Of a DNA stretch of 64,000 nt, positions 8,696-58,635 are shown in pieces. Position 1 is the stretch's first letter. Each line of letters starts with the position of its first letter. Location: assembly GCA_964571255.1 (NCBI GenBank), contig CAZNAA010000001.1, positions 16,167-80,166 of the forward strand, written 5' to 3'. The notes under the pieces are model-generated. The model was not told the origin of the DNA. It saw only the letters and a program-made list of their open reading frames with translations, and did not search any database. This DNA comes from an uncultured Gammaproteobacteria bacterium. GTDB taxonomy: Bacteria > Patescibacteriota > Microgenomatia > Levybacterales > UBA12049. Position numbers and translations under genes: made by a program.

Positions 8696-8737
8696 TTTCT
8701 TTGCCTTTTTAGCTTCAGTTTCAACGTGTTATACTAA

Positions 8738-9664
8738 ATGCCTATGATTACTTACTTTTATAAAAATGGAAAAGATAAAAAACTTATTGAGAAAGAATCT
8801 TTTGTTACTAATTCTTGGGTATATGTTGAAGATCCAACAAGTAAAGAACTAGAAGATCTTGCTGAACAATTTGAGTTGGATGAGAGTTTGCTTCATGATG
8901 GGGTAGACTTGCAGGAAGTTCCTCGAGTAGAGGTAGAAGATGGAGTTCTCTATATCTATACTCGATATGTCCAAGGAAGGGGAGATCAAATCGATACTGT
9001 TCCTATGCTTCTTATATTAAAAAAAGAAGCTATCATTACCATTTCTCCTGAACCATTTCCTAAGCTTTCCGATTTTTTAAATTCCAAAATGGAATTTAGT
9101 ACAGCTAAAAAAGTACAGTTTCTTATTCGGCTATTCAATCGGATTGATGGAACGTATAATGACTTTCTAAATAAATTAAGTAAAAGACTTCGAACACTTA
9201 CTGTTGGGATTGAGAGAATTACCAACAAGGATTTAATCCAATTCATTACGATTGAAAACGTACTGTATGATATCAACTCCTCACTTGTTCGCATGCACAG
9301 TATCTTCTCAACACTTCACAGTGGACGAATGCTAAAGCTGACAGAGGATGAGCGGGATTTACTTGAAGATTTATCTCTTAATACAGGACAGTTGATTCAA
9401 ATTACCAAAGAGTCACTTCAAAGTATTGTCAACATTAGAGAAGCTTACTCAACTATTATGACGAATAACTTAAATAGTGTGATTAAACTCTTTACCTCAC
9501 TTACCGTTATTCTCACTCTTCCAACTATTATTGGAACACTCTATGGGATGAATGTAAAACTTCCGTATCAAGATTCACCTTTTGCATTTACCTTTATTGT
9601 CTCTCTCACTCTTTTTCTCATTGTTACAACCGTTATTCTTTTCTGGTATAAAGATTGGTTATAA
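8738..9664 (+). CDS. corA: CorA family magnesium/cobalt transporter
   Basis: YGMNVKLPY (GMN motif) followed by two C-terminal TM helices. About 310 aa. Confidence 0.8.
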   Translation: MPMITYFYKNGKDKKLIEKESFVTNSWVYVEDPTSKELEDLAEQFELDESLLHDGVDLQEVPRVEVEDGVLYIYTRYVQGRGDQIDTVPMLLILKKEAIITISPEPFPKLSDFLNSKMEFSTAKKVQFLIRLFNRIDGTYNDFLNKLSKRLRTLTVGIERITNKDLIQFITIENVLYDINSSLVRMHSIFSTLHSGRMLKLTEDERDLLEDLSLNTGQLIQITKESLQSIVNIREAYSTIMTNNLNSVIKLFTSLTVILTLPTIIGTLYGMNVKLPYQDSPFAFTFIVSLTLFLIVTTVILFWYKDWL

Positions 9665-9667
9665 ACC

Positions 9668-10348
9668 TTACAGAAGTGTGTTATGAATAGTTCGAAGAGC
9701 AAGTACTTTATCAACCACAAGTGCAGTCATTAACCAAAAGAACCCTCCAGCAAATCCTCCAAGTACGTCAGTTGGATAGTGTACTCCCAAATAAATACGA
9801 CTTATCCCAATAGATAAAACAAGAATAGTTGCTCCCATTCCTAGTAAAAGAGAAACTCCTTTTTGTCTTCTGAAATGATAGAAGAAATAAACAATCGCAA
9901 AGTAAAAGACAAATGAATTCATAGCGTGTCCTGAAGGAAAACTTTGAGTTTGTTCAAAAACGAGTGGGTCTAGTTCTGGTCTTGGCCTATTAAAAAAGTC
10001 CTTTAGGATAAGGTTTAGAATAACTCCACTATAAAAAAGAGAAGAAAAGAAAATCATCTCATGATACTTTTTCTTTATAAGAAAGAAAAACAAAATACTT
10101 ACACTTAAAAAACCTAGAAAATAAATATTTCCAAAAAAAGTAATTCCTTTTATTATTTCAGTTAAAAGTGGGGTTCGAATTTCGTAAAACCACATAAGAA
10201 TCTCATGATCGAGAAAAAATCGTTCTGTTTCTAAAATTTCATCTGCAATTTTAAAAAAAAGATAAAGGGAAACAAAACTCCCTAATACGCCAAAAAAAAT
10301 TTCAGATACTGAAAGAAGAACAGAAGAGTGGACAGTCTTTTTCTGCAT
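9668..10348 (-). CDS. PAP2 family membrane phosphatase
   Basis: PSGHAMNS and SRIYLGVHYPTDVLGG motifs. Multiple TM helices. Confidence 0.7.
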   Translation of the reverse strand: MQKKTVHSSVLLSVSEIFFGVLGSFVSLYLFFKIADEILETERFFLDHEILMWFYEIRTPLLTEIIKGITFFGNIYFLGFLSVSILFFFLIKKKYHEMIFFSSLFYSGVILNLILKDFFNRPRPELDPLVFEQTQSFPSGHAMNSFVFYFAIVYFFYHFRRQKGVSLLLGMGATILVLSIGISRIYLGVHYPTDVLGGFAGGFFWLMTALVVDKVLALRTIHNTLL

Positions 10349-25217: not shown

Positions 25218-25289
25218 CAGGGGTAGAGGGATTCGAACCCCCAGGCTCCGCTTTGGAGGCGGATCGTTTAGCCATTAACGGATACCCCT
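25218..25289 (-). tRNA. tRNA-Trp (anticodon CCA)
   Basis: Manual fold: acceptor AGGGGTA/TACCCCT, D stem CGTT/AACG, anticodon stem TCCGC/GCGGA with loop CTCCAAA, T arm GGGGG-TTCGAAT-CCCTC, discriminator G. Confidence 0.8.
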
Positions 25290-25940
25290 GTACGGGACGT
25301 AAAAGCATTATATATAGCTTCCAGTTCTTTTGCAATTTTATGATCATAATAACAAATTGCCACACATCCTTGATAGTTCTTTTTAGTTCGTTTCATGGTA
25401 TGTGACTTATGATAACTGTTATGAAACTGAGACAAGGGGATATTTGTGACTTTGGACCAAAATTCTTTTTGTATTTTGTCATTATGGTAGTCATGTATAT
25501 GGACTAGCGCTCGAAATTTAGATTCATCAATTTTAAAACTTTTTCTTAAAAGAAAAAGAAAGTTGTGAACTAAGGTTGAATCAGAATTTGTAAAACGAAT
25601 ATATGTAGTTATTTTATTTCCCTCGCACCACCATATAAGTGCACAAGATAATTTAGTTAAATTCCTAGAAAGAGTAATCTCTTTAATTAGCTTAGTTGCT
25701 AACGTTTTACTAATCTCTTTTTCTTGATTTTTCTTAGTTAACTTAAGCTGAACAGTTTTCTTGTCCTGATCTTTCTCTATCTTGTAATCGTTGGAGTGCT
25801 TTACTGTTAAGCTTTATTCCTGAAAGCCATACTGAAGCAGTACTTTTTGCAATGAGTAGTATCTTTGCTATTTCCTCAAGTGAATAACCCTTTTCTCGAA
25901 GTGATATAGCTTGGGTTTTCTTATTTTCACTGTAAGACAT
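25268..25940 (-). pseudogene. Decayed HTH + LAGLIDADG-like endonuclease gene (two frames), 3' end running into tRNA-Trp
   Basis: A 65-aa HTH ORF (SLREKGYSLEEIAKIL...VWLSGIKLN) is followed, after a frame break, by about 155 aa (LSCALIWWCEGNKITTYIRFTNSDSTLVHNFLFLLRKSF...). The second part is homologous to the intact gene at 27069-27722. Confidence 0.45.
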
Positions 25941-26027
25941 TATATAATCTACTATTAGCGTACGATTATTTCTGCATAAAGTCTATAATAAAAAATAGTT
26001 TAAGTTTGAAGTCTAAAGAAAGAGTTA

Positions 26028-26342
26028 TTAGTGGAGGAAGTCTTTAGAAGGCCTTGGAAGTCGTACAGGACATTCGTCTACTTGGATCCATTTTTTGGGA
26101 ACTTCACAGGAAGAAGAGAATGATTGGCATTTTCCATTTTTTGGATTTTTTGCATAAGTAATTTCTGCAAGACATACAGGAATTGGTGTAGGGGTGGGAG
26201 TGTTCTTAATAGGTCTAATTTTATACACAGGTTTTTCAATAATAGTGAGTCCTGCATGTTCTACTGCAAATACATGGGAAGAAACAATAAAAGATAGGGA
26301 AAAGAGGAGGGACAGAGTAACTACTGACTTAATAATACTCAT
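26028..26342 (-). CDS. Small secreted protein (signal peptide), unknown function
   Basis: Likely start at the internal Met (MSIIKSVVTLSLLFSL...VFA). Its ATG overlaps the L33 stop as ATGA. Confidence 0.4.
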   Translation of the reverse strand: MSIIKSVVTLSLLFSLSFIVSSHVFAVEHAGLTIIEKPVYKIRPIKNTPTPTPIPVCLAEITYAKNPKNGKCQSFSSSCEVPKKWIQVDECPVRLPRPSKDFLH

Positions 26343-26518
26343 TATTTTAACTTTTCTGTCTCTTTGTGTTCGGTAATCTTTCTGCACTTATTGCAGTACT
26401 TTTTCAAAAGAAGTTTTTCAGGAGTTTCCATTTTGTTTTTTTGAGTAACATAATTTCTATGTTTACACACAGAACAGGTTAACCCAATAGTAATACGGTG
26501 ATCGCCCTTTTTTGCCAT
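26342..26518 (-). CDS. rpmG: 50S ribosomal protein L33
   Basis: 58 aa, below the ORF-track cutoff. Manual translation gives MAKKGDHRITIGLTCSVCKHRNYVTQKNKMETPEKLLLKKYCNKCRKITEHKETEKLK, the typical L33 Cys4 motif. Confidence 0.8.
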   Translation of the reverse strand: MAKKGDHRITIGLTCSVCKHRNYVTQKNKMETPEKLLLKKYCNKCRKITEHKETEKLK

Positions 26519-26688
26519 AGGGGTATTATACCTAAATCTATGGGTTCTATCAACTCTCTTTTTATTTGACAGAAAAAGGAGGGTGAGTAAAGATAAAAGA
26601 GATGAATAAATGAAGGATTGGACTAACTCTTTTATATCTTGCCTTTCTCCTAGCTGCTATTGGAGGAGTAGGGCAACTTCTAACGAAT

Positions 26689-27003
26689 TTGCCTGCCATT
26701 AGAGAACATTTTAGCTATGAAGTAGAGCAGTATTGGTTTAATAGACTCACGGCAAGTCTTATTTTAGGAAGTACCGGATTATTTTTTGGTGTACTGATAA
26801 AAGGAATAGGGATATATTTTCTTCGGGAAAAAGAATTATTTACTGCTGGGAAGATTATTCTTTTGGCAAGTATCTTGCCTCACATAGTAAGTTTTATTAC
26901 ACTTCCCATTCTTACTCCAACTGATTGGTCTCATATGATCACTCACGGAGTAATTATTCTTTTTATTCCTCTGGGGGTCTATTTAGTTCAAAAAAAAGGA
27001 TGA
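26689..27003 (+). CDS. Small membrane protein (3 predicted TM), hypothetical
   Basis: Three hydrophobic helices. Stop codon overlaps the 3' end of the opposite-strand tRNA-Thr. Confidence 0.35.
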   Translation: MPAIREHFSYEVEQYWFNRLTASLILGSTGLFFGVLIKGIGIYFLREKELFTAGKIILLASILPHIVSFITLPILTPTDWSHMITHGVIILFIPLGVYLVQKKG

Positions 27004-27074
27004 GCCTAGAGCGAGAATCGGACTCGCGACTTCTTCCTTACCATGGAAGCGTTCTGCCACTGAACTACCTAGGC
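27003..27074 (-). tRNA. tRNA-Thr (anticodon GGT)
   Basis: Manual fold: acceptor GCCTAGG/TCTAGGC, D stem GTTC/GAAC, anticodon stem CTTCC/GGAAG with loop ATGGTAA, T arm GCGAG-TCCGATT-CTCGC. Confidence 0.8.
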
Positions 27075-27722
27075 AACAGAAATATTTTCTATTTCTTTCA
27101 TAATCCAACTCTTTAGTTTCATATTACTTGCTGTAATTGTGCACACACCAAATTCTGATTTTCTTTTATATGTTCCTTTTCCTTGAGTTGGAATCTGGAC
27201 TATTTTACCAAATTTCTCAGGGAAAACCGATAGCTGATTTGACCAATAGGTTTTTACCTTATTAATATTACTATCGTTGAAACATATAATGCTATAACTA
27301 ATCTTTCTTTCTTCAAGCTGACAAATATCCCGAAGGAACTTTCTGAATGTTTTTATTAACTTAGAGTCTGTATTAGCTACTCTAACATAGTGTTTAGATA
27401 CCTTTTCACCTTCTCCCCAATAAATACCAAGTCCAATACCAAATAATTTGCTTTCCTCTAAAGAAAGGGTAGTTTTGATTTTGAATGGGTCTCCGGTTGG
27501 ATTTGCTTGTATATACGCTGCATCTGACCTCGAACGTCGGGCAATTTGGTATTTTTGCATCCAGTAGGTAATTTTATGCTCGGAGCAATTAAGTTTTTGA
27601 GATAAACTTCTCATGGATAACCCAGATAGATATAATTGTTCAAGTTCTGTCTTTGAAGGAGAGTTAGATGGAATTATAGGCATACCTATTTCTATGATAG
27701 GTATAGTTCCATTTGTTGTCAA
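27069..27722 (-). CDS. Free-standing HTH + LAGLIDADG-like homing endonuclease inserted in the tRNA operon
   Basis: N-terminal HTH (LEQLYLSGLSMRSLSQKLNCSEHKITYWMQKY) and a motif GIGLGIYWGEGEK resembling LAGLIDADG. The 3' end overlaps the tRNA-Thr 5' end by about 6 nt. Confidence 0.55.
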   Translation of the reverse strand: MTTNGTIPIIEIGMPIIPSNSPSKTELEQLYLSGLSMRSLSQKLNCSEHKITYWMQKYQIARRSRSDAAYIQANPTGDPFKIKTTLSLEESKLFGIGLGIYWGEGEKVSKHYVRVANTDSKLIKTFRKFLRDICQLEERKISYSIICFNDSNINKVKTYWSNQLSVFPEKFGKIVQIPTQGKGTYKRKSEFGVCTITASNMKLKSWIMKEIENISVA

Positions 27723-27731
27723 AAGGGTTGT

Positions 27732-27816
27732 GCTGGATGAAGGATTTGCACCTCCGTAGTCCTTTCGGACGCTTGATCTACAGTCAAGTGCGATTGACTA
27801 CTCCGCCAATCCAGCA
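27732..27816 (-). tRNA. tRNA-Tyr (anticodon GTA), long variable arm
   Basis: Manual fold: acceptor GCTGGAT/ATCCAGC, anticodon stem CTTGA/TCAAG with loop CTGTAGA, 16-nt variable arm, T arm GGAGG-TGCAAAT-CCTTC. Confidence 0.75.
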
Positions 27817-27837
27817 AGGTTAAACGATATGTAAGGG

Positions 27838-27909
27838 AGCCGACTGTCGGGATTGAACCGACGACCTGATGTTTACAAAACAACTGCTCTACCGCTGAGC
27901 TAAGTCGGC
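27838..27909 (-). tRNA. tRNA-Thr (anticodon TGT)
   Basis: Manual fold: acceptor GCCGACT/AGTCGGC, D stem GCTC/GAGC, anticodon loop TTTGTAA (stem has one U-U mismatch), T arm GTCGG-TTCAATC-CCGAC. Confidence 0.65.
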
Positions 27910-43827: not shown

Positions 43828-44811
43828 TCTTTAGGTTTATAAGCTCTTTAACAATCGAAAAGTGGTAGGGAATTTAAGAATTTGGACTTCCCTTATCAGT
43901 TACGCACTGATATTTTTTGTCCTTATTCATTGATAGAGAATAAAAACTCTGTCATATTTTTTTGAGAATTTGATCCTGGTTCAGGATGAACGCTGGCGGC
44001 GTGCCTTAGGCATGCAAGTCGAACGAAAAAGTCGCAAGATAATTTAGTGGCAGACGGGTGAGTAACGCGTAGGAATCTACCCCTGGGAATCGCATAGCCC
44101 TCCGAAAGGAGGGGTAATACGATATGGTCTCGCAAGAGTAAAGGACTTAACGGTCCGCCGAGGGAGGAGCCTGCGTCCTATCAGCTTGTTGGTGAGGTAA
44201 TGGCTTACCAAGGCGATGACGGGTAGCTGGACTGAGAGGTTGATCAGCCACAACTGCACTGAGACACGGGCAGTACACCTACGGGTGGCAGCAACTGGGA
44301 ATATTCGGCAATGGACGAAAGTCTGACCGAGCGACGCCGCGTGGAGGAAGACGGCCTTCGGGTTGTAAACTCCTTTTGCCAAGCCCTTCACGGCTTGGAG
44401 AATAAGCCTCTACTAACTACGTGCCAGAAGTCTCGGTAATACGTAGGAGGCAAGCGTTATCCGGATTTATTGGGCGTAAAGTGTGCGTAGGCGTTCTTTC
44501 AAGTCATGGCTTAAAGACCGGGGCTTACCCTCGGATTTGGTTGTGATACTGGGAGAATTGAGGATTGACAGGGGTGCTGGAACAGTTAATGTAGCAGTGA
44601 AATGCGTTGATATTAACTGGAACACCGATGGCGAAGGCAGGCACCTGGGTTATTCCTGACGCTGAGGCACGAAAGCTAGGGGAGCGAAACAGATTAGATA
44701 CCTGTGTAGTCCTAGCTGTAAACGATGTCCGCTAGCTATCACTCACCAAGGATACAAGGGAGTACTTTGTATTTTTAGTGAGTGGTGGTGTAAGCTAACG
44801 CGTTAAGCGGA

Positions 44812-44871
<60 letters not shown>

Positions 44872-44989
44872 CCGGTGGAGCGTGTGGTTCAATTCGAGAC
44901 AAAGCGAAAAACCTTACCAAGGTTTGACATCTTACCGTTTTATACCTATGGAAACACTGGTAGATCCGAAAGGATGGTAAGACAGGTGT

Positions 44990-45024
<35 letters not shown>

Positions 45025-45321
45025 CCCTTAAGTGGGGAAACGAGCGCAACCCCCGCTGAATGTTAAATATTCATTCGGGACAGCCCCAATTATTTGGGGA
45101 GGAAGGAGGGGAAGACGTCAAGTCAGCACGGCCCTTATACCTTGGGATACACACACCCTACAATGGCGAATAACAACGTGTTGCTAGCAGGTAACTGCAT
45201 GCTAATCACTTAAATTTCGCCTCAGTTCAGATTGAGGTCTGCAACTCGACCTCATGAAGTCGGAATCGGTAGTAATCGCGGATCAGAAGGCCGCGGTGAA
45301 TACGTTCTCGGGTCTTGTACA

Positions 45322-46102
45322 AATTAAATGCGCCTGGCAGTTTAAAAGACAAGATGGTGAAAATCCATCCTAGTAGTTGAAGAACAGGACCTCTCTTGTA
45401 AAAGAAGGTCTGAAGGGTTCGATGTAACGAAGAGCAGCCTAGATATAAAAAAGTGTTTCGACTCTTAGGTGTACTAAGAGGAAGAAAACAAGAAAAGCTT
45501 TTTAGGATGTTTGAAATTGTTTTTTAAATGACCCAGGGAGATCCTATACTGACAGAACACATAATTGAGTATAGGAAGTCAGCTGATTCCATAGTATTTA
45601 AATAGGTGTATACTTATTTAGAGAAGGGATGAACTCTAAACTAAATCCATATTATCTTGTTGGTTTGGTAGATGGAGAAGGATGTTTCTGCGTTTCTTTT
45701 AACAATCATAAATCTCATCGATTAATTGAAGTAAGACTTCTTTTTGAAATTGAACTTCGAGAAGACGATAAAGAGATTTTAGAACGAGTAAAAGAGACTC
45801 TTGGTTGCGGTAATATTTATTATCTTAACTATAAGCGATATCAAAAATGGAGACCTCACTATAAGTATAAGGTTTCTAACTTAAAAGATATCACTGAGAA
45901 AATTATTCCTTTTTTTACTACCTATCCTTTACAAGCTAAGAAAAAGGAGAGTTTTAATAAATTCTCTGAGGTTGCAAAGCTTATGCTTCGTAAATCTCAT
46001 CTTAGTGAAGAAGGTATTCAACATATAAAAGATTGGCAAGAGACTCGCTGGATGCGGGAAATCCGCACGTCCAGTGGGGAGGAACAGGTTTCTGATTCCA
46101 AT
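45322..46102 (+). mobile_element. Putative self-splicing intron in 16S rRNA (inserted between CTTGTACA and CACCGCCCGTC, E. coli ~1391-1393)
   Basis: The conserved string TTGTACACACCGCCCGTC is split at this point. The insert carries a homing endonuclease ORF. Boundaries are approximate, within about 2 nt. Confidence 0.6.
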
Positions 46103-46150
46103 CACCGCCCGTCAAGGCAGCAAAGTCGGGGGTGGCTGAAGCGCCCTTAG
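45629..46150 (+). CDS. Intron-encoded single-motif LAGLIDADG homing endonuclease
   Basis: YLVGLVDGEGCFCVSF motif. About 170 aa. The reading frame extends about 16 codons into the downstream exon. Confidence 0.8.
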   Translation: MNSKLNPYYLVGLVDGEGCFCVSFNNHKSHRLIEVRLLFEIELREDDKEILERVKETLGCGNIYYLNYKRYQKWRPHYKYKVSNLKDITEKIIPFFTTYPLQAKKKESFNKFSEVAKLMLRKSHLSEEGIQHIKDWQETRWMREIRTSSGEEQVSDSNHRPSRQQSRGWLKRP

Positions 46151-47251: not shown

Positions 47252-47323
47252 GGCGCGGTGGCGAAGCGGTAACGCAGGGGTCTGCAAAACCTCCATGCAC
47301 GGGTTCGATCCCCGTTCGCGCCT
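47252..47323 (+). tRNA. tRNA-Cys (anticodon GCA)
   Basis: Manual fold: acceptor GGCGCGG/TCGCGCC, anticodon stem GGGGT/ACCTC with loop CTGCAAA, T arm ACGGG-TTCGATC-CCCGT, discriminator U. Confidence 0.8.
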
Positions 47324-47557: not shown

Positions 47558-47941
47558 ATGGAAAAAGAACAGAAAGAACACACACAATCGAAAGAAAAAG
47601 AGTATGGAGAAGATGGGCATAGTGAGAAACAGCTTGATTTAGACGCAGAAATAGCTGCAGGGGAGTGGACACATCTCAAAAATTTTAAAACCTATCAACA
47701 AAGGTCCCGCCAAGGCAAAATTATTGCTATGCATAAGGCTGTTTCTAATAGACTTCAACAACTGGAGAAACTCTATTATCCCTTGGTTGGAAAGTATCCT
47801 CAGAAGGCACTAAAGCTTCTCCAAGAGTTAAAACAACTTCGAACCATGCAAGAGTACCTTTTACAATGTTTAGTCTGGGAAGAAAAAAACGAATTAACCT
47901 CCGATTTAGTACCCTCTGAGCTATGGGAGCTTATTTCCTAG
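47558..47941 (+). CDS. Hypothetical protein
   Basis: 127-aa ORF, charged and coiled-coil-like. Confidence 0.3.
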   Translation: MEKEQKEHTQSKEKEYGEDGHSEKQLDLDAEIAAGEWTHLKNFKTYQQRSRQGKIIAMHKAVSNRLQQLEKLYYPLVGKYPQKALKLLQELKQLRTMQEYLLQCLVWEEKNELTSDLVPSELWELIS

Positions 47942-47977: not shown

Positions 47978-48049
47978 GGGTGCATAGTTCAGCGGTAGAA
48001 CGCTTTCCTGATAAGAAAGAGGTGCATGGTCCGACTCCATGTGCACCCA
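47978..48049 (+). tRNA. tRNA-Ile (anticodon GAT), free-standing
   Basis: Manual fold: acceptor GGGTGCA/TGCACCC, D stem GTTC/GAAC, anticodon stem CTTTC/GAAAG with loop CTGATAA, T arm CATGG-TCCGACT-CCATG. Preceded by a TATAAT-like box. Confidence 0.8.
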
Positions 48050-48882: not shown

Positions 48883-49863
48883 TTAGTCTTTCTTTCCTCG
48901 TAGTAGTATTTGTCCTTTGTGAATCCCCAATTGAATTAAAATACTTATCCCAGTAACAGTGAGGAAAAAGGTGTACCAGCTAAAGTAGTGTTTGTATGAG
49001 GCAAGAAAAATAAGAACACAGTAATGGATAAAATAGAGTTGGTAGGAATTGACGCTTAGGTATGTTATTCCTTTTTCAATACTAGAGGGAAGAGATACGT
49101 ACTTGTATAGGAGAGTAAGTCCAATAATCCAAAGGATGCCGTAGAAAAGAAAGTAGGTATCTGGTGGATACTTGTGAGTGATAAGAAGCGTGGGAGATAA
49201 TCCCCAGTGAAGAATACTCCAAGGAATAAGAAGGAGAGTGAAGTATTTTAATTGCATTTTATTGTCATCTCTAAATTTCAAAATAGCTTTCGCAACAAAA
49301 AAGAAAAAAGACCAGCCAATCCACATGACCCATTTATAGGATACTGCTATATCCTGGTAAAAGGTGAAGAGAATAAAAAAGAGAAGAAAGATAGGAAGAA
49401 GAAAAGACTTCTCTTTGTAATTTTGGTGCAAGAATTGATACAAAGGAAAAAGAAGTGTCAGTTGCACAAAGAGAAGTACTAACCAGTTAATATCAATTCC
49501 TCCAACAAGTAAGAGGCTTTGAAGAATATAAGAGATAGTTAGTTTTCCTGGTTCTACAAAAAAAAGAACTAGGAAAAAGAAAGGAATGAAAGTGTAGTAG
49601 GGAATAAGAAGGCGTAAAAGACGTTTAGGAATATATTTCTTATAGAATTGGATAAGATCTTTCCAGGAAGTATTTGTAAAATCTTCTTTCTGAACGAAGA
49701 GAAATGCAGAACAGAAAACAAAGATAGGAACGGCAAATTGAGCGTAATTCCAAAGGAATGAAGCGGTTCTATCTCCAATAAAATAATACGAGGTGTGGAT
49801 GAGGATCATGGCCAGCATGGCAAATCCACGGAGAAAGTCAATCAAGAAATTTCGTTGAACCAT
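48883..49863 (-). CDS. Acyltransferase family 3 (membrane O-acyltransferase, OafA-like)
   Basis: FLIDFLRGFAMLAMILIHT N-terminal motif and about 10 TM helices. Confidence 0.7.
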   Translation of the reverse strand: MVQRNFLIDFLRGFAMLAMILIHTSYYFIGDRTASFLWNYAQFAVPIFVFCSAFLFVQKEDFTNTSWKDLIQFYKKYIPKRLLRLLIPYYTFIPFFFLVLFFVEPGKLTISYILQSLLLVGGIDINWLVLLFVQLTLLFPLYQFLHQNYKEKSFLLPIFLLFFILFTFYQDIAVSYKWVMWIGWSFFFFVAKAILKFRDDNKMQLKYFTLLLIPWSILHWGLSPTLLITHKYPPDTYFLFYGILWIIGLTLLYKYVSLPSSIEKGITYLSVNSYQLYFIHYCVLIFLASYKHYFSWYTFFLTVTGISILIQLGIHKGQILLRGKKD

Positions 49864-49900: not shown

Positions 49901-51112
49901 TTAAGCAGCTTTTATAATTGGACCAACTTCCCAGCCTCTTACCTCATTATTTACGATTTTAAATCGTACAGGTGCAACTTGTGTTAAAACTCCTGCGTGA
50001 TTTTCAGCTACTAAAACTTGATTCTCCTCATTTGAAAGCCATGCTGGCATAAAGTCTCTCTTAGCTAGATCAGTTGCTACTCCAGTTCCTCTACTCAAAT
50101 CTGAAACAGCAATAAGAAGAGTATCTGTGTTTGAAAAAGGTTTTTCTGGGTTACCTCTATTAACTGTAGCGTGATAGATAGGATACTCAAGTTGGTCACC
50201 TAAATGTTCAATATCGTTGGGTGAGAAAGTAGTTGCCTTTTGTCCATCTTGACCTCTCTCTCTGGTCCGACGGACTGTCATTCTAAATGTAGCTCCAGGG
50301 AAGGCAAAGTCTGGGATCCATACTTCAGCAGATCTTAAGTTGTCTCCAATTTTTATTAATGGAGGTCTTTGAACTTGTAAACCATCTAGTAAATGGGGAT
50401 GTCTTGCTAACTCCTCTTTTTTTCGTTTCTCGCGTAGCTGCATATAGGTTTGAAGTTCTACAGGAAGTTCTTCATAAGAGAGTGCTTCAAAGCTACGATC
50501 ATGAGGAATCGAAGCAGGAGTGGGTCTCCCAAGGATATCTAATAAAGGAATATGAGATTCACGTCCTCCGTCGGTCCTATTGTAAACTGCAAAGAAGTGT
50601 AATTCTCCGGTGAGGTGGTTTTGATATGCAGCTGCAACTTGTTTTGGTGTTTTTCCTGCGAGCTCAGCAGCTTTTCTCACGCTTTGGAGGTTCGTATGAT
50701 CTTCAACTGCTTTATCTATATACCCAGTTATACCTCGTCGAGATGGTTGATGGCCATTTTTTACATGAAGTTGTCTAGCGAGTCTTCCTCCACAGTCTGG
50801 TCCATGAGACATTACTATTCCAAATTTAACCCCAGAACTATTGATGGCGTTTCTTAAGCTTTCCGCTGAACCACCGTTTGCAATAGTGTGAAAATAAACT
50901 GATCCTGGATCTAGTCTCCATACTCTTGCATCATCGCATAACCAAATAAGCCCTTGAGTGCCATTACTTCTCCGATTATCAAATTCTTGACGTCTATCAA
51001 CTGCTAATCTGGAGTGGTTACTCTCAAGAAGTGCTTCGGGAGTTATTCGTTTTGAAAGATGCTCAGGTCTTTCCTGTTGATTTAAATAATATTGTATTTC
51101 TCTTCCAGCCAT
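49901..51112 (-). CDS. Hypothetical cytoplasmic protein with beta-carbonic-anhydrase-like Cys/His motif set
   Basis: LCDDARV (CxDxR) ... FHTIANGG ... VMSHGPDCGG (HxxxC). Paralogous to the protein at 51210-52853. Confidence 0.4.
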   Translation of the reverse strand: MAGREIQYYLNQQERPEHLSKRITPEALLESNHSRLAVDRRQEFDNRRSNGTQGLIWLCDDARVWRLDPGSVYFHTIANGGSAESLRNAINSSGVKFGIVMSHGPDCGGRLARQLHVKNGHQPSRRGITGYIDKAVEDHTNLQSVRKAAELAGKTPKQVAAAYQNHLTGELHFFAVYNRTDGGRESHIPLLDILGRPTPASIPHDRSFEALSYEELPVELQTYMQLREKRKKEELARHPHLLDGLQVQRPPLIKIGDNLRSAEVWIPDFAFPGATFRMTVRRTRERGQDGQKATTFSPNDIEHLGDQLEYPIYHATVNRGNPEKPFSNTDTLLIAVSDLSRGTGVATDLAKRDFMPAWLSNEENQVLVAENHAGVLTQVAPVRFKIVNNEVRGWEVGPIIKAA

Positions 51113-51209
51113 AAATTAGATGTTACAAAAAAACATTTTACTTCTTATGGGTTGTAAATTCAAGGGGTATGTATTGAAAATTGGGTAAAATTATGGTAAA
51201 ACTCAAACT

Positions 51210-52853
51210 ATGGGAAAAAACAATTTTGATCTGTCAAAAAATCTTCAACTCCAAGTAGACCAATTTATTCAATCACTTGAGGAATATAATAATAAGAGAC
51301 CGGCTGAGCGAAAAAGACAACAAAGAGACTACGAATTTCTTAAGGATTTGTTTATTCGCTTTCTCTCAGACAGAAATAATAGGGCTATTGAAGTCCAATC
51401 TCCTGAATACGAAAAAGTGAAAACTCTGGCTAATGAACAATTCCCAACTCCTACTCTTTGGAACCTGTGTATGGATGGACGCGTTAAAAGTGTCGTAATT
51501 AATGGGATGACGGCAGGAGTGGGAGCAACTATTCGTGTACCTGGGGGAATTTTACGAGAATTTGTTCGTGACACAAAAGGAAATTTTACTCTTCTTCGAA
51601 ATTCTAACTTTGCTCAGCTGCTTATCAACGCACTTTCTTGGGATCACAATAAGATAGTTACTGAAGTTTTTGATAGCCACGTAGGGTGTGCAGCAAGAAA
51701 TGCTGAAGAACATGCCAGAGGACGTGATTTAAAAGACATGGGACTTCTTAGTGACGTATTACATAAGAAAGAGATGCTTGAAGCCTTACATAAGTTTACG
51801 AAGTCTTTATACGGAGATACAAAACGGGTTATTAGTATCCAAACGAGTTTTGATCCTCATTGTGGATATTTATACATGGGACTTGAAACTGATGAAGCAT
51901 TACGTGTTGCAAAAGACTATGCAAAAACATTGGGGGAGACTGAAGGAAAGACTCATCGATGGGAATACACAACAGGTGTATTAAAATACTTAGTAGAAAA
52001 AGGAAAAGTTATCTTTACTGAAGAGATGGTAGAAATCCCTCAAATTAAACAAGCATTTGACTCTTCTGTTATTACGCTCAATTGGGAAACAGGATATGTC
52101 CAGACAGCCAAGCAATTCTGGAATAATATCGCGAGAATGAAAGAAAAACTTCTTCCTCTTTTTAGAGAGAAACTTATAACTGTATATCCATACTTAAAAG
52201 AAGAAACAAAGGAGAACCAAATTGAACTTGAGGAGCGAGCAATGATTTTATTAACCAATGCCTATAGTGGCTATTTAAATAATCATAACCAGGAATATCC
52301 CTATGGAGTTCACAGGGAAGAATGTATAAAAGTTTCAAAAGGAGGGTTTCCTCCTTATGAAATCTCTGCTTTTGTGGTGCTGTCAACTGATGAATCAAAT
52401 CTTTCATCCAATATTGAACTTGCAGCTTCTTTAGTACGACAGAATAGAATGCAATCTCGAGTCAGTGATCGCTCAGGAAGCTATTTAGAACCAGACGAAT
52501 TTGCTCAAGCACCAGTCCCTTTGATTATTCAAGAAATTCTTGATGAAGAACTAAACGCATCTGACTGGGAAAATTTATGTAGTATTGGCTGGGAAGATAT
52601 GCCAGAAGATTGGGATGTTATTTCTGATCGAGAATTCTTGAGTTATTTAGAGACAAAAGGAGATATTCATTTACGAGTGGCGATCGGCATGAATGATCTG
52701 AGGCACAAAATGGCAATTCTTTTTGATTCAAATCAAATTATTTCAGGGAGATTAATTTCTCATCATAAAGTAGCACTTCCTGTAATGGTTGATAAAAACA
52801 GAATAAACTATCTTATTATCCCTTTTATTAAGCATGGATTTTTAGCTAACTAA
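51210..52853 (+). CDS. Hypothetical cytoplasmic protein, paralogous domain to 49901-51112
   Basis: LCMDGRV ... IRVPGG ... FDSHVGCAA, with the same motif order and spacing as its neighbour. Confidence 0.4.
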   Translation: MGKNNFDLSKNLQLQVDQFIQSLEEYNNKRPAERKRQQRDYEFLKDLFIRFLSDRNNRAIEVQSPEYEKVKTLANEQFPTPTLWNLCMDGRVKSVVINGMTAGVGATIRVPGGILREFVRDTKGNFTLLRNSNFAQLLINALSWDHNKIVTEVFDSHVGCAARNAEEHARGRDLKDMGLLSDVLHKKEMLEALHKFTKSLYGDTKRVISIQTSFDPHCGYLYMGLETDEALRVAKDYAKTLGETEGKTHRWEYTTGVLKYLVEKGKVIFTEEMVEIPQIKQAFDSSVITLNWETGYVQTAKQFWNNIARMKEKLLPLFREKLITVYPYLKEETKENQIELEERAMILLTNAYSGYLNNHNQEYPYGVHREECIKVSKGGFPPYEISAFVVLSTDESNLSSNIELAASLVRQNRMQSRVSDRSGSYLEPDEFAQAPVPLIIQEILDEELNASDWENLCSIGWEDMPEDWDVISDREFLSYLETKGDIHLRVAIGMNDLRHKMAILFDSNQIISGRLISHHKVALPVMVDKNRINYLIIPFIKHGFLAN

Positions 52854-52871
52854 GCGCTTCATTGCATACTA

Positions 52872-53615
52872 ATGATTATTACCTCTATTAAAACGCATAA
52901 AATCCACTCTGAGGAGCAAACAATCTTTGCTCTTTTGGATCAATACCTTCCTTCTTTTTCAGAAAGTTCTGTTCTTGCTGTAACATCAAAAATTGTAGCT
53001 CTTTGTGAAGGAAGAGTTGCAGCATCTACCATTAATAAAGACGAACTTATTAAGAAAGAAGCTCATTTTTATTTACCTCGGGAATTAAACAAATATCATG
53101 TAATGTTAACGATTAAAAACTCTATGATGGCAGCTGCAGCAGGGATTGATGAATCAAATGTAGAAGAAGGCTATGTGTTATGGCCCGAAGATCCCCAGAA
53201 AAGTGCGAATGAGATTAGAAAATATTTAGTAAAACGGTTTAACGTAAAAAAGTGTGGAGTAATTCTGACAGATAGTAAGACAACTCCTTTGCGGTGGGGA
53301 GTGACAGGAATGGGAATCTCCTATAGTGGATTTGAAGTACTCAATAACTATATTGGAAAAAAAGATATCTTTGGACGAGAGATGAAGCTAACAAAAGTAA
53401 ATGTGATGGATAGTCTAGCAGCCAGTGCAGTCTACGTTATGGGAGAAGGAAAAGAGCAAACCCCTCTTGCTGTTCTTTCTGACATTCCTCATCTTGTGTT
53501 TCAAGATAGAAATCCAACTAAAGAAGAGGTAGAAGCCTTGTATATCGATATGGATGATGATTTATATGGACGGATTCTCTCACTGGCTCCATGGAAAAAA
53601 GGAGAAGGAAAATAA
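52872..53615 (+). CDS. CofE-like gamma-glutamyl ligase family protein (F420-0:gamma-glutamyl ligase fold)
   Basis: VLAVTSKIVALCEGR motif and a ~245-aa length typical of the CofE/FbiB N-domain family. Confidence 0.55.
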   Translation: MIITSIKTHKIHSEEQTIFALLDQYLPSFSESSVLAVTSKIVALCEGRVAASTINKDELIKKEAHFYLPRELNKYHVMLTIKNSMMAAAAGIDESNVEEGYVLWPEDPQKSANEIRKYLVKRFNVKKCGVILTDSKTTPLRWGVTGMGISYSGFEVLNNYIGKKDIFGREMKLTKVNVMDSLAASAVYVMGEGKEQTPLAVLSDIPHLVFQDRNPTKEEVEALYIDMDDDLYGRILSLAPWKKGEGK

Positions 53616-54354: not shown

Positions 54355-56130
54355 TTACTGACCAAACTGGACAGATAACTCTCTGATGAATAAGTTGTAG
54401 TCAAAATGGTTATTCTTCCCATCATCTGTCAGATCAGTCATTACTTTTTTACTCGGATCACTGCAAGCTTTGGCAGGAAGGGCATCACTATAACAATCCA
54501 TAATCTCATTGTAGTCAAGAATGTCTAACTTGTTATCATTATTTACATCTCCTGATACTAACTGGATAGAATCAAGTGCAATAGTTGAATCAACAGATAT
54601 AACTCCTGGATAGACTTTTTGAAGATACTTATTAGTTTTTACTTTAATCGTGTATTCTCCTTCTAAAACGTCTGGGATAGTGACTATTCCATCATAATAG
54701 CCGCTCAGTACTGCTGGTTGGATATCGCCTGGGGGAGGAACAGGAACATAACTCATCATCCCTGTTGCTTCTTTGATCAACTGAGTATTGTTTAGTTTGC
54801 TGTAGAGTCCAACGGTTACTTCTTTTGTCACTGTTTGTGGAGTTTTATTACTTAAAGAACTATCGGTATTTTTATTGTCTCCACTATTACCAATTCCATG
54901 AAGGAAAACAGCTAAGTTGATACTCACATCAATCATACTTGTTGTTGCAGGAACTGAAACTTCATTCGAGGTTTTACACAGTACCGTCGTAGTACAGGCT
55001 GTTACTTTAAAAGTATAGGCAGTATTGTTGGCTACATCAATCGTAGCACTTAGTCCACCAACTGCCACAGGAGAAGTAGCGTATGTTCCTGTACCTGTTT
55101 TCATATAGACACTATACGTTGCGTCTCCTACGTTGTTCCAGGATAGTTTAACGTCTCGTCTATTGTTTGATTTAGGAATAATAGTATCAAGAGAAAGGGT
55201 AAGATTCGGAATAGGGGTAATGACTGTGGTAGGAGTAGGAGTTGCTGTTGGCGTAAGGTCGTTAGTTACGATTTCTCTATCTAATTCCACACTTCCTGAG
55301 TAAAGAATAACTGGAATGGATGTCGGGACAGATAGGACATTGTTATAGGAACCAGAAGCATTCACGGGAATTTTTGTCCCTGTTTCTCCAAATTTCAAAG
55401 AAACATTAGGAGCAGATTGTGTCTCCCATACTACGTTGACATTACAAGAGGGAAAGGCTGGGCAGTTTCCAATACTGGTACTTGTAATTCGTCCTGTTGG
55501 ACTAGGAGTTGGAGTAGCTGTCGGAGGAACCACAGTAGTTGGGGTAGGAGGAATATCAAAGGATATCGTTGCGGGAACAGCACTTTCCAAAACATTTTCT
55601 GAAGCTAAGTCTTCTGAGCTAATCGAGAACACTTGAGTTTGATCACTTCCGGTTAATAATCTAATTTGTTTTGTTCCAGTGAGAAGAGACGTATTTGAAC
55701 TTGTTTTAAAGGAAAAGCTTGCAACTCTTGTTGGTTGTGAGGCAGCTCCTGTTGGGTTGTTGCCAATCGTAACTACTCCTATTGCTTGTCCAGTTGAATA
55801 GATAGGACCTTCAATCACTTGTCTGAAAACGTCTAGATTTGGATTAAATTTCTCAGGTACGGGAGTAAAGACTGCTGGATCAAATGTAAATACATATCGA
55901 ACCGTTGAGACTAAGTTATTTCCAGGATTTACATAAAGATCTAAAACAAATTCCTCACCTGGCTGTACTACTTTGGTAGTACCAGGAGTAGCTGTATCAA
56001 AATAGAGTGTCGTAGATTTTGCTGCACTTGAGCGATTTTCTTGGTTTCTTTGCAAAACAAAAATGGTTAAAGGAACTGAGAGAAAGAGCAGAATAATTAG
56101 TCCCAACAAAAAAATATTCTTTGAGTGCAT
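54355..56130 (-). CDS. Adaptor protein with N-terminal cohesin-like module, Ig/FN3-like repeats and C-terminal X-dockerin
   Basis: Cohesin-like: VQPGEEFVLDLYVN...VRYVFTFDPAVF...RVASFSFKT. C-terminus: GDVNNDNKLDILDYNEIMDCY...DLTDDGKNNHFDYNLFIREL (two dockerin Ca-binding repeats). Confidence 0.55.
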   Translation of the reverse strand: MHSKNIFLLGLIILLFLSVPLTIFVLQRNQENRSSAAKSTTLYFDTATPGTTKVVQPGEEFVLDLYVNPGNNLVSTVRYVFTFDPAVFTPVPEKFNPNLDVFRQVIEGPIYSTGQAIGVVTIGNNPTGAASQPTRVASFSFKTSSNTSLLTGTKQIRLLTGSDQTQVFSISSEDLASENVLESAVPATISFDIPPTPTTVVPPTATPTPSPTGRITSTSIGNCPAFPSCNVNVVWETQSAPNVSLKFGETGTKIPVNASGSYNNVLSVPTSIPVILYSGSVELDREIVTNDLTPTATPTPTTVITPIPNLTLSLDTIIPKSNNRRDVKLSWNNVGDATYSVYMKTGTGTYATSPVAVGGLSATIDVANNTAYTFKVTACTTTVLCKTSNEVSVPATTSMIDVSINLAVFLHGIGNSGDNKNTDSSLSNKTPQTVTKEVTVGLYSKLNNTQLIKEATGMMSYVPVPPPGDIQPAVLSGYYDGIVTIPDVLEGEYTIKVKTNKYLQKVYPGVISVDSTIALDSIQLVSGDVNNDNKLDILDYNEIMDCYSDALPAKACSDPSKKVMTDLTDDGKNNHFDYNLFIRELSVQFGQ

Positions 56131-56184: not shown

Positions 56185-58635
56185 TTATTCTCCAAACTGA
56201 ACTGAAAGTTCTCGGATAAGTAGGTTGTAATCTGTTTGGTTGACTAATCCTTCGTCAGTAAGATCAGTGATTTTTTGCTTTTCAGGAGTACAAGCTTTTG
56301 CAGGGGAAATATCTTGATAACAATCCATGAGCATATTGTAGTCAAGAATATCGAGTTTACTATCAGCTGTTACGTCTCCAGTAACTAGAGTAAGTTCAGG
56401 AACTTCAACAAGCGTCCCATCAGTTACTTGGACAACCCCTAGTCCTCTTCTTGGTAAGTATTGAGGAACAGACAGTCTAACTTGATAATCTCCAGGTTCT
56501 AGCAAGTCAAAATTCACAATTCCTTTAAAAGTTCCAGAACTTGAGGAATTAGGTTCGGAAAAATATTTGATACTCGAGAAGGATTTAGTAACGAATGTGT
56601 TATTTTTTGTAAAGAGCTCAAGTGTGACTAATCGTTGTTGGTTTACTGGATTTTTATTTCCTCCGAGAGGATTTTTATTGTCTCCACTATTACCAATTCC
56701 ATGAAGCTTTACGGTAAGAGAGAAAGGTGTTCCATTTTGAGTCATAGTAGGAGTTGGAAATGGTGTACTGGTTGGAACAACTGTAGGAGTAGGAGATGGT
56801 GTTGGGGTAGGGTGGCGAGTAGGAGTTGGTGTGGGGGATGGAGTACTCGTGGGAGTAGGAGTTGCTGTTGGGATTCTTATAGGGGTAGGAGTAACTGGAG
56901 AAATAGCACATTGAGGAGTTACTTGGGATACGTTACTGCATTTTGCACCGATTTGGGTAAAATCTGGTTGTTGGTCAAGTTCTGTTGCTTGAAGAGCGTT
57001 TTTTACTTGAGTACAGGTAGGAGAGTCATATAAATCATCACAGGCACGAAGAAGAAGCGTATAGACAGCTTTGTAGTTAGTATTTGGACTAAAGTAAGTA
57101 GTGAGAGCTCGATACATAATCGCATGACTTTTCTCACTCCCAATTCCTTCAACAGTACATCCATTAAAATTTCCTCCATTTGTCATAAGGTAAAATGCTT
57201 TATTCATGACTCCATTATTCCTGTGAACTCCACAATAGTCGTTAGTTTGATCACAAGTACTTCCATTTGCAGGACAATAATAGTTGGTTGAGAATAATCG
57301 ATCAGGCTGAGATCCTTCAGGGCTTCTCGTAGGATCATCCATATATCTAATTATGCCTATGCTGGAATCTTCACCAATAGTCCAGTCAGGGTCGAGTGCA
57401 TTGGCAAAAATATCAGCAAGGGATTCATCCAGTGCACCTGATTGAGCTTGATAGATGAGTTGAGCAGTAGCACTGGTAACTGCGTGGGTAACTTCGTGAG
57501 TAATAATATCTTTTGTTACTAACCCGTCACAAACAGCAATCATATTAATCTCACCAATCCAAGCAGCATTTGGACAAGGAAATACGTCTCTATCTGCCAT
57601 GTGAACAAAAGCTTCAAGAGGTGATCCTGAACCATCATAACTATCTCGGGAGTATGTATTGTTGTAGTAGTTGTAAATATCTCCAAAATAGGCATAGATG
57701 TTGTCTACGTCGGGATCACCCACAGGACCTTCTCCTTCTTCTCGTGTTACTGGACAAAGACCAGTGATTGGATTACATTGTCTCTCATCAAATATGTAGC
57801 GTTCTAACCCAGTATGAAAAAGAGCATCCGTATAGATAATATTGCCTGTTTCTAAATCAATAAAATATTGGTGAGGAAAGCTGATTCGAGAAGCATTTTG
57901 TCCAATAGTTACTGCCAGAGTTAGATAATTTTTACTATCCTCAGAAATTCCTAAAAGCTTTTTATTAAAAATATATTTCCCTTTTTCTGTATGTTTTATT
58001 TCTTTATTTGTTTTAGTATCAAGGATGTATTGCTCTTTGGCTTTTTGTATTGCTGTGTCTTCTGAAATTTTTTCTCCTTTAAGTGTCTCGTTTTTTACTA
58101 AACTTCCATCAAGTGCATAGATTTTATTTTCTTCTTTCATATGTACTCCTAAAATACCTCCATATACAGGGATACCCTGAATAGTTTGGTTGTAGAAGTA
58201 ATGAGAGGTATCAAGAGTGAGGCCTCTCTCTTTATAGAATTGATCATCAGTGGTATCAAAAGAGCGAACTAAAGTAGAATTTTTGGCAAATTGAGAGGGA
58301 AGGAGTGGACCTGTTGTTACTCCTTGAACAGGATTTTCACTTTGTGTTTCTTGTACTTCATAGGTAGGGTTTGTCGTAATAAATTCCTGAGCCCCTGTTT
58401 CTCCATCTAATCGAGTTTCATATAAACTTCCATTTGTTTCATAAAGAGAAAAATGAATTACGTTTCCTTCCTCAACCACTCCTTCACCTGAAACAAGAGG
58501 GTTTTGTTCACCTGTTGCTCTACTATCTAGCCGTGATTGTTTAGTTCTAACATAGAGTGAGAAAAGGATAATTCCTATACATAAAAAGAGGGAAAGAGAA
58601 ATAAATAGAAGTTTTTTTGAAAAAGAAAATTTCAT
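56185..58635 (-). CDS. Thermolysin-like (M4) zinc metalloprotease with C-terminal X-dockerin module
   Basis: ITHEVTHAVT (HExxH) ... LDESLADIF (ExxxD). PT-rich linker, then LHGIGNSGDNKN module and dockerin repeats (DVTADSKLDILDYNMLMDCY / DLTDEGLVNQTDYNLLIREL). Confidence 0.7.
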   Translation of the reverse strand: MKFSFSKKLLFISLSLFLCIGIILFSLYVRTKQSRLDSRATGEQNPLVSGEGVVEEGNVIHFSLYETNGSLYETRLDGETGAQEFITTNPTYEVQETQSENPVQGVTTGPLLPSQFAKNSTLVRSFDTTDDQFYKERGLTLDTSHYFYNQTIQGIPVYGGILGVHMKEENKIYALDGSLVKNETLKGEKISEDTAIQKAKEQYILDTKTNKEIKHTEKGKYIFNKKLLGISEDSKNYLTLAVTIGQNASRISFPHQYFIDLETGNIIYTDALFHTGLERYIFDERQCNPITGLCPVTREEGEGPVGDPDVDNIYAYFGDIYNYYNNTYSRDSYDGSGSPLEAFVHMADRDVFPCPNAAWIGEINMIAVCDGLVTKDIITHEVTHAVTSATAQLIYQAQSGALDESLADIFANALDPDWTIGEDSSIGIIRYMDDPTRSPEGSQPDRLFSTNYYCPANGSTCDQTNDYCGVHRNNGVMNKAFYLMTNGGNFNGCTVEGIGSEKSHAIMYRALTTYFSPNTNYKAVYTLLLRACDDLYDSPTCTQVKNALQATELDQQPDFTQIGAKCSNVSQVTPQCAISPVTPTPIRIPTATPTPTSTPSPTPTPTRHPTPTPSPTPTVVPTSTPFPTPTMTQNGTPFSLTVKLHGIGNSGDNKNPLGGNKNPVNQQRLVTLELFTKNNTFVTKSFSSIKYFSEPNSSSSGTFKGIVNFDLLEPGDYQVRLSVPQYLPRRGLGVVQVTDGTLVEVPELTLVTGDVTADSKLDILDYNMLMDCYQDISPAKACTPEKQKITDLTDEGLVNQTDYNLLIRELSVQFGE

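Follow-up and report, generated by a model that had tools for sequence, protein, structure and literature searches.

Carbonic anhydrases (CAs) of the beta class bind their zinc ion through Cys, His and Cys residues, and an Asp/Arg dyad positions the zinc-bound hydroxide. A layout in which each chain has an active and a degenerate beta-CA domain defines CsoSCA, together with an uncharacterised 'non-cso' orphan cluster (Pulsford et al. 2024, PMC11086599). The non-carboxysomal, shorter CsoSCA homologs, which have one zinc site per pseudo-dimer, have not been assigned a role (PMC11086599). Here we describe two CA-like genes in a stretch of DNA of 64,000 nucleotides (nt) from a bacterium of the Candidate Phyla Radiation (CPR), hereafter called the window. 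They are divergently transcribed, encode proteins of 403 and 547 amino acids (aa), and are followed on the side of the 547-aa gene by a gene for a 247-aa CofE-like ligase. An earlier interpretation, the sequence-only reading, had regarded the 403-aa and 547-aa proteins as paralogs with a beta-CA-like motif set, and the ligase as their partner. The three open reading frames (ORFs), the divergent spacer of 97 nt and the gap of 18 nt between the stop codon of the 547-aa gene and the start of the ligase gene were all present as it had described them. Our analysis leads us to a reading to which we give about an even chance of being correct, namely that the 403-aa and 547-aa proteins are CsoSCA-like zinc hydratases, probably acting on CO2/bicarbonate, which are expressed together with a folate and deoxythymidine monophosphate (dTMP) module.

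The 547-aa protein has no match to any Pfam or NCBIfam family. We found 95 homologs of this protein, none of which has a Pfam domain, and the few named ones are hypothetical proteins, several of them from Levybacteria. In an alignment of 62 homologs, with identities down to 28%, the residues C87, D89, G90, R91, D155, H157 and C160 are invariant, while conservation is at least 90% for R109, P111 and G113 in the IRVPGG loop. This loop aligns with the IRNAGG sequence of the beta-CA 6jqc. An AlphaFold2 model built from the same alignment had a mean pLDDT (predicted local distance difference test score) of 95.4, and a Foldseek search of the PDB with this model returned as its top six matches CsoSCA (8thm from Cyanobium, 9g4t and 2fgy from Halothiobacillus) and the tandem beta-CA 1ddz from Porphyridium, with E-values from 1e-7 to 3e-6 and about 500 aligned columns. 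The remaining 44 of the 50 matches listed were all canonical beta-CAs. At the level of the model, the beta-CA resemblance that had been noted for the 547-aa protein is therefore supported.

The modelled secondary structure starts with a helical N-terminal part, which is followed by the alpha/beta domain bearing the motifs and by another alpha/beta domain with strands in the region 372-536, in which an invariant H368-x-E370 stands at the position of CxDxR. As judged from this model, the 547-aa protein is predicted to have a layout of the CsoSCA type, in which each chain would form a pseudo-dimer of an active and a degenerate beta-CA domain. CsoSCA (CsoS3) is the best structural match, and the predicted helical N-terminal part, catalytic domain and ligand-less beta-CA domain would be common to both. 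The active-site residues of CsoSCA (Cys-Asp-Arg, His and Cys) are also shared by the 547-aa protein, and a profile of the 547 family gave a weak alignment with the beta-CAs 6jqc and Can in which the zinc residues and the dyad are in register. There are, however, clear differences from CsoSCA. The 547-aa protein does not match the Pfam CsoSCA models PF08936 and PF20686, its genomic context is one of folate and thymidylate genes rather than of carboxysome or Rubisco genes, and its hosts almost all belong to the CPR. Moreover, it has HxxC as its second motif, whereas the corresponding CsoSCA motif is H-x10-C.

The 403-aa protein was less accessible to comparison. Single-sequence searches of the PDB gave only noise, no Pfam family matched the window protein, and a metagenome scan with alignment A2 gave no relatives. 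A word-indexed search yielded a single homolog, and 7 matches were obtained with the family profile. An exhaustive profile search yielded 203 cluster representatives of the 403 family, 146 of them below an E-value of 1e-10 and nearly all between 340 and 450 aa in length. Among 121 aligned members, C59, H103 and C107 show no variation, and conservation reaches at least 90% at D61, R63, G108 and G109. Most members carry an insert of 12-13 residues between the His and the second Cys, and the clade of the window protein has the short HxxxC form. When the family profile was searched against the PDB with hmmsearch, 14 of the 18 matches were beta-CAs, the best being 1ddz with an E-value of 0.001. In addition, 7 of the 121 members match Pfam Pro_CA at E-values of up to 0.1, the best at 1.4e-4. 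Finally, an hhalign comparison of the 121-sequence profile with Can and CynT of Escherichia coli, the sequences of which were taken from the annotated K-12 record, gave a probability of 94.5% and an E-value of 7.6e-8 over 130 columns, with C59, D61, R63, H103 and C107 falling on C42, D44, R46, H98 and C101 of Can. For the 403-aa protein, the earlier claim of a beta-CA resemblance thus gains support from profile comparison. Based on these PDB profile matches, the members matching Pro_CA and the alignment with Can and CynT, the N-terminal half of the 403-aa protein is predicted to be a beta-CA domain. In the family profile, the C-terminal half aligned weakly, with a probability of 10.6%, to the start of a beta-CA domain, a slight indication that it may be a second, degenerate repeat.

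Both proteins keep the full catalytic residue set of Cys, His and Cys plus the Asp/Arg dyad. The motifs that had been reported were indeed found in the translations, as CDDAR, FHTIANGG and HGPDC in the 403-aa protein and as CMDGR, IRVPGG and DSHVGCAAR in the 547-aa protein, and their conservation in homologs, proposed earlier as a check, was observed in both families. A chance match of the motifs can be rejected on the basis of their rarity. Only these two of the 124 stop-to-stop ORFs of the window contain C.D.R followed by H.{2,3}C within 20-110 residues, and when the 403-aa and 547-aa sequences were each shuffled 200,000 times, the same pattern arose 25 and 100 times, respectively. The 403-aa protein has two cysteines in all, both of them inside the motifs. 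Compared with canonical beta-CAs (PF00484; Can, CynT), both window proteins retain the zinc ligands and the dyad, but they are two to three times longer and lack a PF00484 match (for the 547-aa protein, none at E-values of up to 1), and the 'RNxxN' loop is replaced by IANGG in the 403-aa protein and by RVPGG in the 547-aa protein.

Other parts of the sequence-only reading had to be revised. The motifs do not have the same spacing in the two proteins, since the distance from Cys to His is 44 residues in the 403-aa protein versus 70 in the 547-aa protein, and HxxxC in the former corresponds to HxxC in the latter. Nor did the proposed paralogy hold, as there is no direct similarity between the two proteins. 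BLASTP gave a best E-value of 3.0, and profile-profile comparison of the families by hhalign, with the 2-sequence and the 121-sequence profiles, gave probabilities of 0.2-0.3%. Separate comparison of the domains of the two families likewise revealed no similarity, apart from the C-terminal hint in the 403 family mentioned above. The two proteins are very distant relatives within the beta-CA superfamily, and not close paralogs. Lastly, a composition rich in Arg, Gly and Gln that would be atypical for the genome applies only to Arg in the 403-aa protein (8.7%, z +2.8). This protein has ordinary Gly and Gln contents, and the composition of the 547-aa protein is not unusual. His is enriched in the 403-aa protein (4.0%, z +3.1).

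To place these genes in their wider context, we used a scan of species-representative genomes, which gave 53 loci encoding 547-type relatives and, with the window and metagenomic loci, a total of 60 (loci are numbered with the prefix L). Neighbouring ORFs were clustered and the clusters were named by Pfam and NCBIfam; many of the contigs are short. Where a record title names a lineage, it is nearly always one of the CPR, among them Levyibacteriota, Roizmanbacteria, Peribacteria, Uhrbacteria, Magasanikbacteria, Paceibacterota, Woesebacteria and Microgenomates. An exception is Candidatus Udaeobacter, a lineage outside the CPR that is named in one title, and many automated assemblies are labelled 'uncultured Gammaproteobacteria'; both kinds of label are given here as they stand in the records. 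The recurrent neighbours of the 547-type gene encode dCTP deaminase-like proteins (DCD), ThyA, dihydrofolate reductase (DHFR), FolC, the CofE-like ligase, a GT1 glycosyltransferase and TatD. In 30 of these 60 phylogenetically related loci, FolC, CofE-like, DCD, ThyA or DHFR genes are found within about 10 kb in the fetched flanks. Several loci display the arrangement as a co-directional run, which reads 547-type-FolC-DCD-DCD-ThyA-DHFR in L021, 547-type-DCD-DCD-ThyA-DHFR in L022, and 547-type-G6-DCD-ThyA-DHFR in L042, L044 and L049 (G6 being a further CA-like family described below). In L028, L030, L038 and L051, the arrangement is divergent, with 547-type-GT1 on the strand opposite to DHFR-ThyA-(FolC)-DCD.

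The same type of neighbourhood was encountered from the side of the 403 family. A metagenome scan seeded by a distant 403 subfamily gave three loci (L066, L067 and L068). On the 776-kb contig of L066, one strand has the order ThyA ... DCD-thymidylate kinase ... DCD-FolC-Pro_CA_2, and the opposite strand carries the 403-type gene. L068 has DCD-CofE-like-Pro_CA_2, again with the 403-type gene on the opposite strand, and the divergent pair of Pro_CA_2 and 403-type genes recurs in L067. Another distant member of the 403 family has tRNA-guanine transglycosylase on one side and the folate-dependent formyltransferase Fmt on the other. Since L066 and L068 reveal folate and dTMP genes from the 403 side as well, the 547 and 403 families, which are unrelated at the sequence level, independently sit at the same folate/dTMP cluster. 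Altogether, CA-like genes are repeatedly linked in the CPR to a module of FolC or FolC2, DCD, ThyA and DHFR, sometimes with thymidylate kinase, a context that lay beyond the reach of the sequence-only reading. A carboxysome-like context was rejected, as no carboxysome (cso) or Rubisco genes are present in the flanks within the window or in the 59 related loci.

Some further arrangements were observed around these genes. L031 and L059 lie on one 802-kb contig (JBAZVQ010000001.1, at about 506-521 kb), where two 547-type paralogs, which are 31% and 24% identical to the 547-aa protein of the window, flank DHFR-ThyA-FolC-DCD. In five loci from non-Levybacteria CPR (L006, positions 8001-10151; L024, L025, L026 and L036), the 547-type gene directly abuts an ATP synthase operon. 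Within its FolC-DCD-Tmk-ThyA cluster, L066 also contains, at 402-1502, 1506-2000 and 5421-6044, proteins of 367 and 208 aa without a family match and one DUF5680 protein, which may be further members of the module.

The CA-like genes often stand as adjacent pairs, which in some loci are divergent. The divergent neighbour of the 547-type gene is a 403-type gene in the window, L001, L007 and L008, and other loci have different partners. In L009, the partner is another 547-type paralog of full length, which has CIDGR and HxxC; in L015, it is a different protein of about 510 aa with KCIDGRL and AHTEC; and in L029, it is a protein of about 340 aa with H-x10-C, which passes the Pfam CsoSCA_cat threshold (30.8 vs 21.5 bits). 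Five loci (L011, L013, L014, L053 and L054) have a partner of the 'G6' family, with about 250 aa and the motifs CVDxR, PGAD and HtDsH...GCGH. The G6 profile aligns in register with the 547 family at a probability of 45% and an E-value of 2e-4. The partner in L027, also of the type with about 250 aa, has a weak match to the zeta-CA repeat PF18484. In L066-L068, the partner is a small Pro_CA_2 protein with GCMDGRV and HGHQEC, which matches PF20393 ('putative carbonic anhydrase') with 108.9 bits in L066. These Pro_CA_2 genes are divergent from the 403-type gene and upstream of the FolC or CofE-like gene, which is the position of the 547-aa gene in the window. The CMDGRV motif of Pro_CA_2 is shared with the 547 family, a similarity that is confined to the motif and covers 17 aligned columns, and neither window protein matches the models of Pro_CA_2 (PF20393) or zeta-CA (PF18484). 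Between the 547-type gene and DCD, a truncated G6 form of about 180 aa ('G6short') was found, which has only the C-terminal half and lacks CxDxR and the His/Cys motifs. G6short may be a non-catalytic partner subunit. The earlier idea of an enzyme pair accordingly gains support in so far as a second CA-like gene adjoins the 547-type gene in many loci, but the two window proteins are not close paralogs.

In loci of Levybacteria (L001, 3007-4362; L007, 1782-3218; L008, L009, L012 and L015), the conserved gene on the outer side of the 403-type gene, or of the partner that replaces it, encodes a MurF-like Mur ligase. The window has a gene for an Acyl_transf_3 membrane protein (48883-49863) in its place. 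A folate role was considered for the Mur ligases near the 403-type genes of L001, L007 and L008 and was rejected, since the L001 copy is MurF-like (TIGR01143, 174 bits, under the cutoff) and the others group with it.

The 247-aa protein is CofE-like, as had been proposed, with a match of 124.6 bits to PF01996 (F420_ligase) and an E-value of 5e-23 against the CofE structures 2g9i, 2phn and 7uld in the PDB. Its best model, however, is TIGR04132 ('putative folate metabolism gamma-glutamate ligase'), which it matches over the full length (1-243 of 241) with 279.9 bits, below the curated cutoff of 350 bits. It shares the fold family PF01996 with CofE, but scores below the cutoff of the CofE equivalog TIGR01916 (134.3 vs 180.65 bits). 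F420 synthesis is not expected in CPR bacteria. The CofE-like ligase gene is located directly downstream of the 547-type gene in 7 distinct loci (the window, L002/L003, L009, L011, L013, L014 and L015), and a FolC gene has this position in L007, L008, L010 and L021. A bona fide FolC occupies the slot adjacent to the CA-like gene in L007, L021, L050 and L057 (TIGR01499, 292-337 bits vs a cutoff of 163), and homologs of these four do so in L008, L010, L058 and L066. At the level of the individual locus, FolC and the CofE-like ligase were never found together. In its position, the ligase behaves as a substitute for FolC. A role in F420 biosynthesis was rejected because of the score under the CofE cutoff and because FolC takes the same slot. 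A precedent is provided by CT611 (FolC2) of Chlamydia trachomatis, a CofE homolog that is encoded among folate genes and is able to complement a folC mutant of E. coli (PMC1971073). In view of the best match to TIGR04132, the replacement of the ligase by FolC in the same slot and the Chlamydia precedent, the 247-aa protein is most likely a FolC2-type folylpolyglutamate synthase. Like CT611, it is encoded among folate genes, in an organism that is not expected to make F420. This leaves little room for the view that the ligase is an amide- or peptide-ligating partner of the CA-like pair. The ligase gene is probably co-transcribed with the 547-aa gene, because the gap between them is only 18 nt and terminator prediction across the region found none. 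In the region of the divergent spacer, the number of predicted promoters is lower than expected from shuffles.

According to the CsoSCA-like reading, the 403-aa and 547-aa proteins would be cytoplasmic hydratases that use a hydroxide bound to a putative zinc ion, and they may act together as a hetero-oligomer. CO2/bicarbonate would be the default substrate, with the chances for and against it about balanced. The CA-like genes would serve the folate/dTMP module, which would in some way need such chemistry. Several observations weigh against this reading. The TM-scores (template-modelling scores) of the 547-aa model with CsoSCA are 0.42-0.50, with a root-mean-square deviation of about 8 A and an identity of 8-10%, and none of the 62 members of the 547 family matches any CA sequence model at an E-value of up to 0.1. 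The structure model of the 403-aa protein, made from a 2-sequence alignment, has a pLDDT of 36, and its Foldseek matches are meaningless. The linkage counts are not independent, and a minority of homologs adjoin the F1Fo ATP synthase operon (the five loci mentioned above) or rplJ/rplL. Furthermore, R58, D155, D176, D182, K186, R343, Y363, H368 and E370 are invariant charged residues of the 547 family in addition to the motifs. A plain CO2 hydratase would have no obvious need of these residues, which may point to a ligand that is larger or charged. Lastly, we know of no enzyme of the linked module that uses or releases CO2 or bicarbonate stoichiometrically, and a generic CA therefore does not explain the linkage.

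The last two points bring into play a different substrate. The proteins could be zinc enzymes of the beta-CA fold that have been turned to a folate, one-carbon or nucleotide substrate, with the two chains forming one enzyme. Candidate reactions would be the hydration of the amidine carbon of 5,10-methenyl-tetrahydrofolate (THF), the hydrolysis of 5- or 10-formyl-THF, or the dehydration of hydrated formaldehyde to yield methylene-THF. GTP cyclohydrolase I provides a precedent, in which a hydroxide on zinc coordinated by Cys, His and Cys attacks an amidine carbon. The view of a different substrate is supported by the finding that the 547-type, 403-type, G6 and Pro_CA_2 proteins, although barely related, are all encoded beside FolC or FolC2, DCD and ThyA, as well as by the additional invariant charged residues and by the position of the 547 family outside every CA sequence model. 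On the other hand, the full catalytic set of CAs is kept, including the Asp/Arg dyad, and all activities of the beta-CA fold known to us concern CO2-like molecules (CO2, COS and CS2). Some homologs are, moreover, encoded away from folate genes. We therefore consider a folate-directed enzyme rather unlikely, though a possibility to be taken seriously.

By analogy with CsoSCA, which is regulated by ribulose-1,5-bisphosphate, the two proteins might instead be regulators or sensors with little part in catalysis, in which the beta-CA-like site or the degenerate C-terminal domain would bind CO2/bicarbonate or a phosphorylated metabolite and so tune deoxynucleotide and folate metabolism. Conserved Arg and Lys residues in the C-terminal part of the 547 family (R343, R410, R413, R417, K483, R498, R531 and K541) and the G6short proteins, from which the half with the motifs is missing, would fit such a function. 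The zinc ligands are, however, invariant in both families, as is typical of active enzymes, and searches of Pfam and NCBIfam gave no DNA-binding or signalling domain, which makes a sensory role improbable. About as improbable, lastly, is the view of the sequence-only reading that a paralogous pair of metal enzymes and the ligase make or modify a compound other than folate, since the adjacency of 547-type and CofE-like genes in 7 distinct loci, the 18-nt gap in the window and the position of the CofE-like gene of L068 between DCD and a Pro_CA_2 gene divergent to the 403-type gene are countered by the presence of FolC in the same slot, which makes it unlikely that the ligase acts on a product of the pair, by the closeness of the ligase to TIGR04132, and by the surrounding ThyA, DHFR and DCD genes, which point to folate as the ligase substrate.

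The features of the three genes in the window and of the G6short genes are listed in the Table.

Table. Positions of the CA-like genes, their motifs and associated features. Coordinates refer to the window unless a locus is named; residue-based domain limits are approximate, and those of the 547-aa protein were read from the secondary structure of the AlphaFold2 model.
Feature	Position	Strand	Remarks
403-aa protein gene ('A3 family')	49901..51112	-	ORF; N-terminal beta-CA-like domain predicted at residues ~48-195
403-aa protein, C-terminal domain	~200 residues		
Codons C59-D-D61-A-R63 of the 403-aa gene	50924..50938	-	putative first zinc ligand and Asp/Arg dyad
Codons H103-G-P-D-C107 of the 403-aa gene	50792..50806	-	putative second and third zinc ligands
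Divergent intergenic region	51113..51209	.	97 nt, between the 403-aa and 547-aa genes
Sigma-70-like site for the 403-aa gene	51163..51135	-	consensus match only
547-aa protein gene ('A1 family')	51210..52853	+	ORF
547-aa protein, helical N-terminal domain	residues ~1-77
547-aa protein, predicted catalytic beta-CA domain	residues ~78-360
547-aa protein, C-terminal beta-CA-like domain	residues ~361-547		without zinc ligands
Codons C87-M-D89-G-R91 of the 547-aa gene	51468..51482	+
Codons I-R109-V-P111-G-G113 of the 547-aa gene	51531..51548	+	counterpart of the beta-CA 'VRNxGN' loop
Codons D155-S-H157-V-G-C160-A-A-R163 of the 547-aa gene	51672..51698	+
CofE-fold gamma-glutamyl ligase gene, 247 aa	52872..53615	+	PF01996 match
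G6short, L038	1512-2063
G6short, L042	11637-12173
G6short, L044	11702-12241
G6short, L049	11658-12233

Downstream of the ligase gene, two adjacent genes on the minus strand (54355-56130 and 56185-58635) encode proteins of 591 and 816 aa. Both have hydrophobic segments at the N-terminus and linkers rich in Pro and Thr, and their C-terminal modules (GDVxxDxKLDILDYN...DLTDDG...NxxDYNLFIRELSVQFG) are nearly identical. The 816-aa protein also has a metalloprotease-like HEVTHAV motif. In many loci of Levybacteria, relatives of these two proteins are encoded in synteny downstream of the 547-type gene. Elsewhere, the window contains a complete bacterial 16S rRNA gene (43958-45369, plus strand; 1243 bits, 1412 nt for a model of 1533 positions) and, 260 nt downstream of it, an ORF for a LAGLIDADG homing endonuclease of 173 aa (45629-46150, plus strand). 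This stretch forms the GC peak of the window (0.449), and no match to a 23S rRNA was found anywhere in the window. Of the six tRNA genes, four are located on the minus strand within about 2.7 kb (25218-27909), and the other two (47252-47323 and 47978-48049, both on the plus strand) flank a small ORF (47558-47941).

Neither the 547 family nor the 403 family is represented in Pfam (2025 copy) or NCBIfam (2026). In our literature searches, we found no paper linking CA or CsoSCA to the CPR or Patescibacteria, none linking CA to thyA/folA clusters, and none on PF20393. Non-carboxysomal homologs of CsoSCA were already known, and it is the occurrence in the CPR and the link to thyA/folA clusters that are new with respect to the literature found. 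If the two window proteins are carbonic anhydrases, they would point to an unrecognised need for CO2 or bicarbonate in deoxynucleotide or folate metabolism, and the CsoSCA lineage would extend far outside carboxysomes, which would bear on the origin of CsoSCA. If they are instead directed at folates, they would be the first enzymes of the beta-CA fold to act beyond CO2-like molecules, and would fill a gap in the supply of the thymidylate cycle of the CPR. CPR bacteria have a minimal metabolism, and genes that are kept across them would therefore mark something indispensable. The FolC2-type reading of the ligase, for its part, would account for 'F420 ligase' genes in organisms that are not expected to make F420, and would correct many annotations of CPR genomes.

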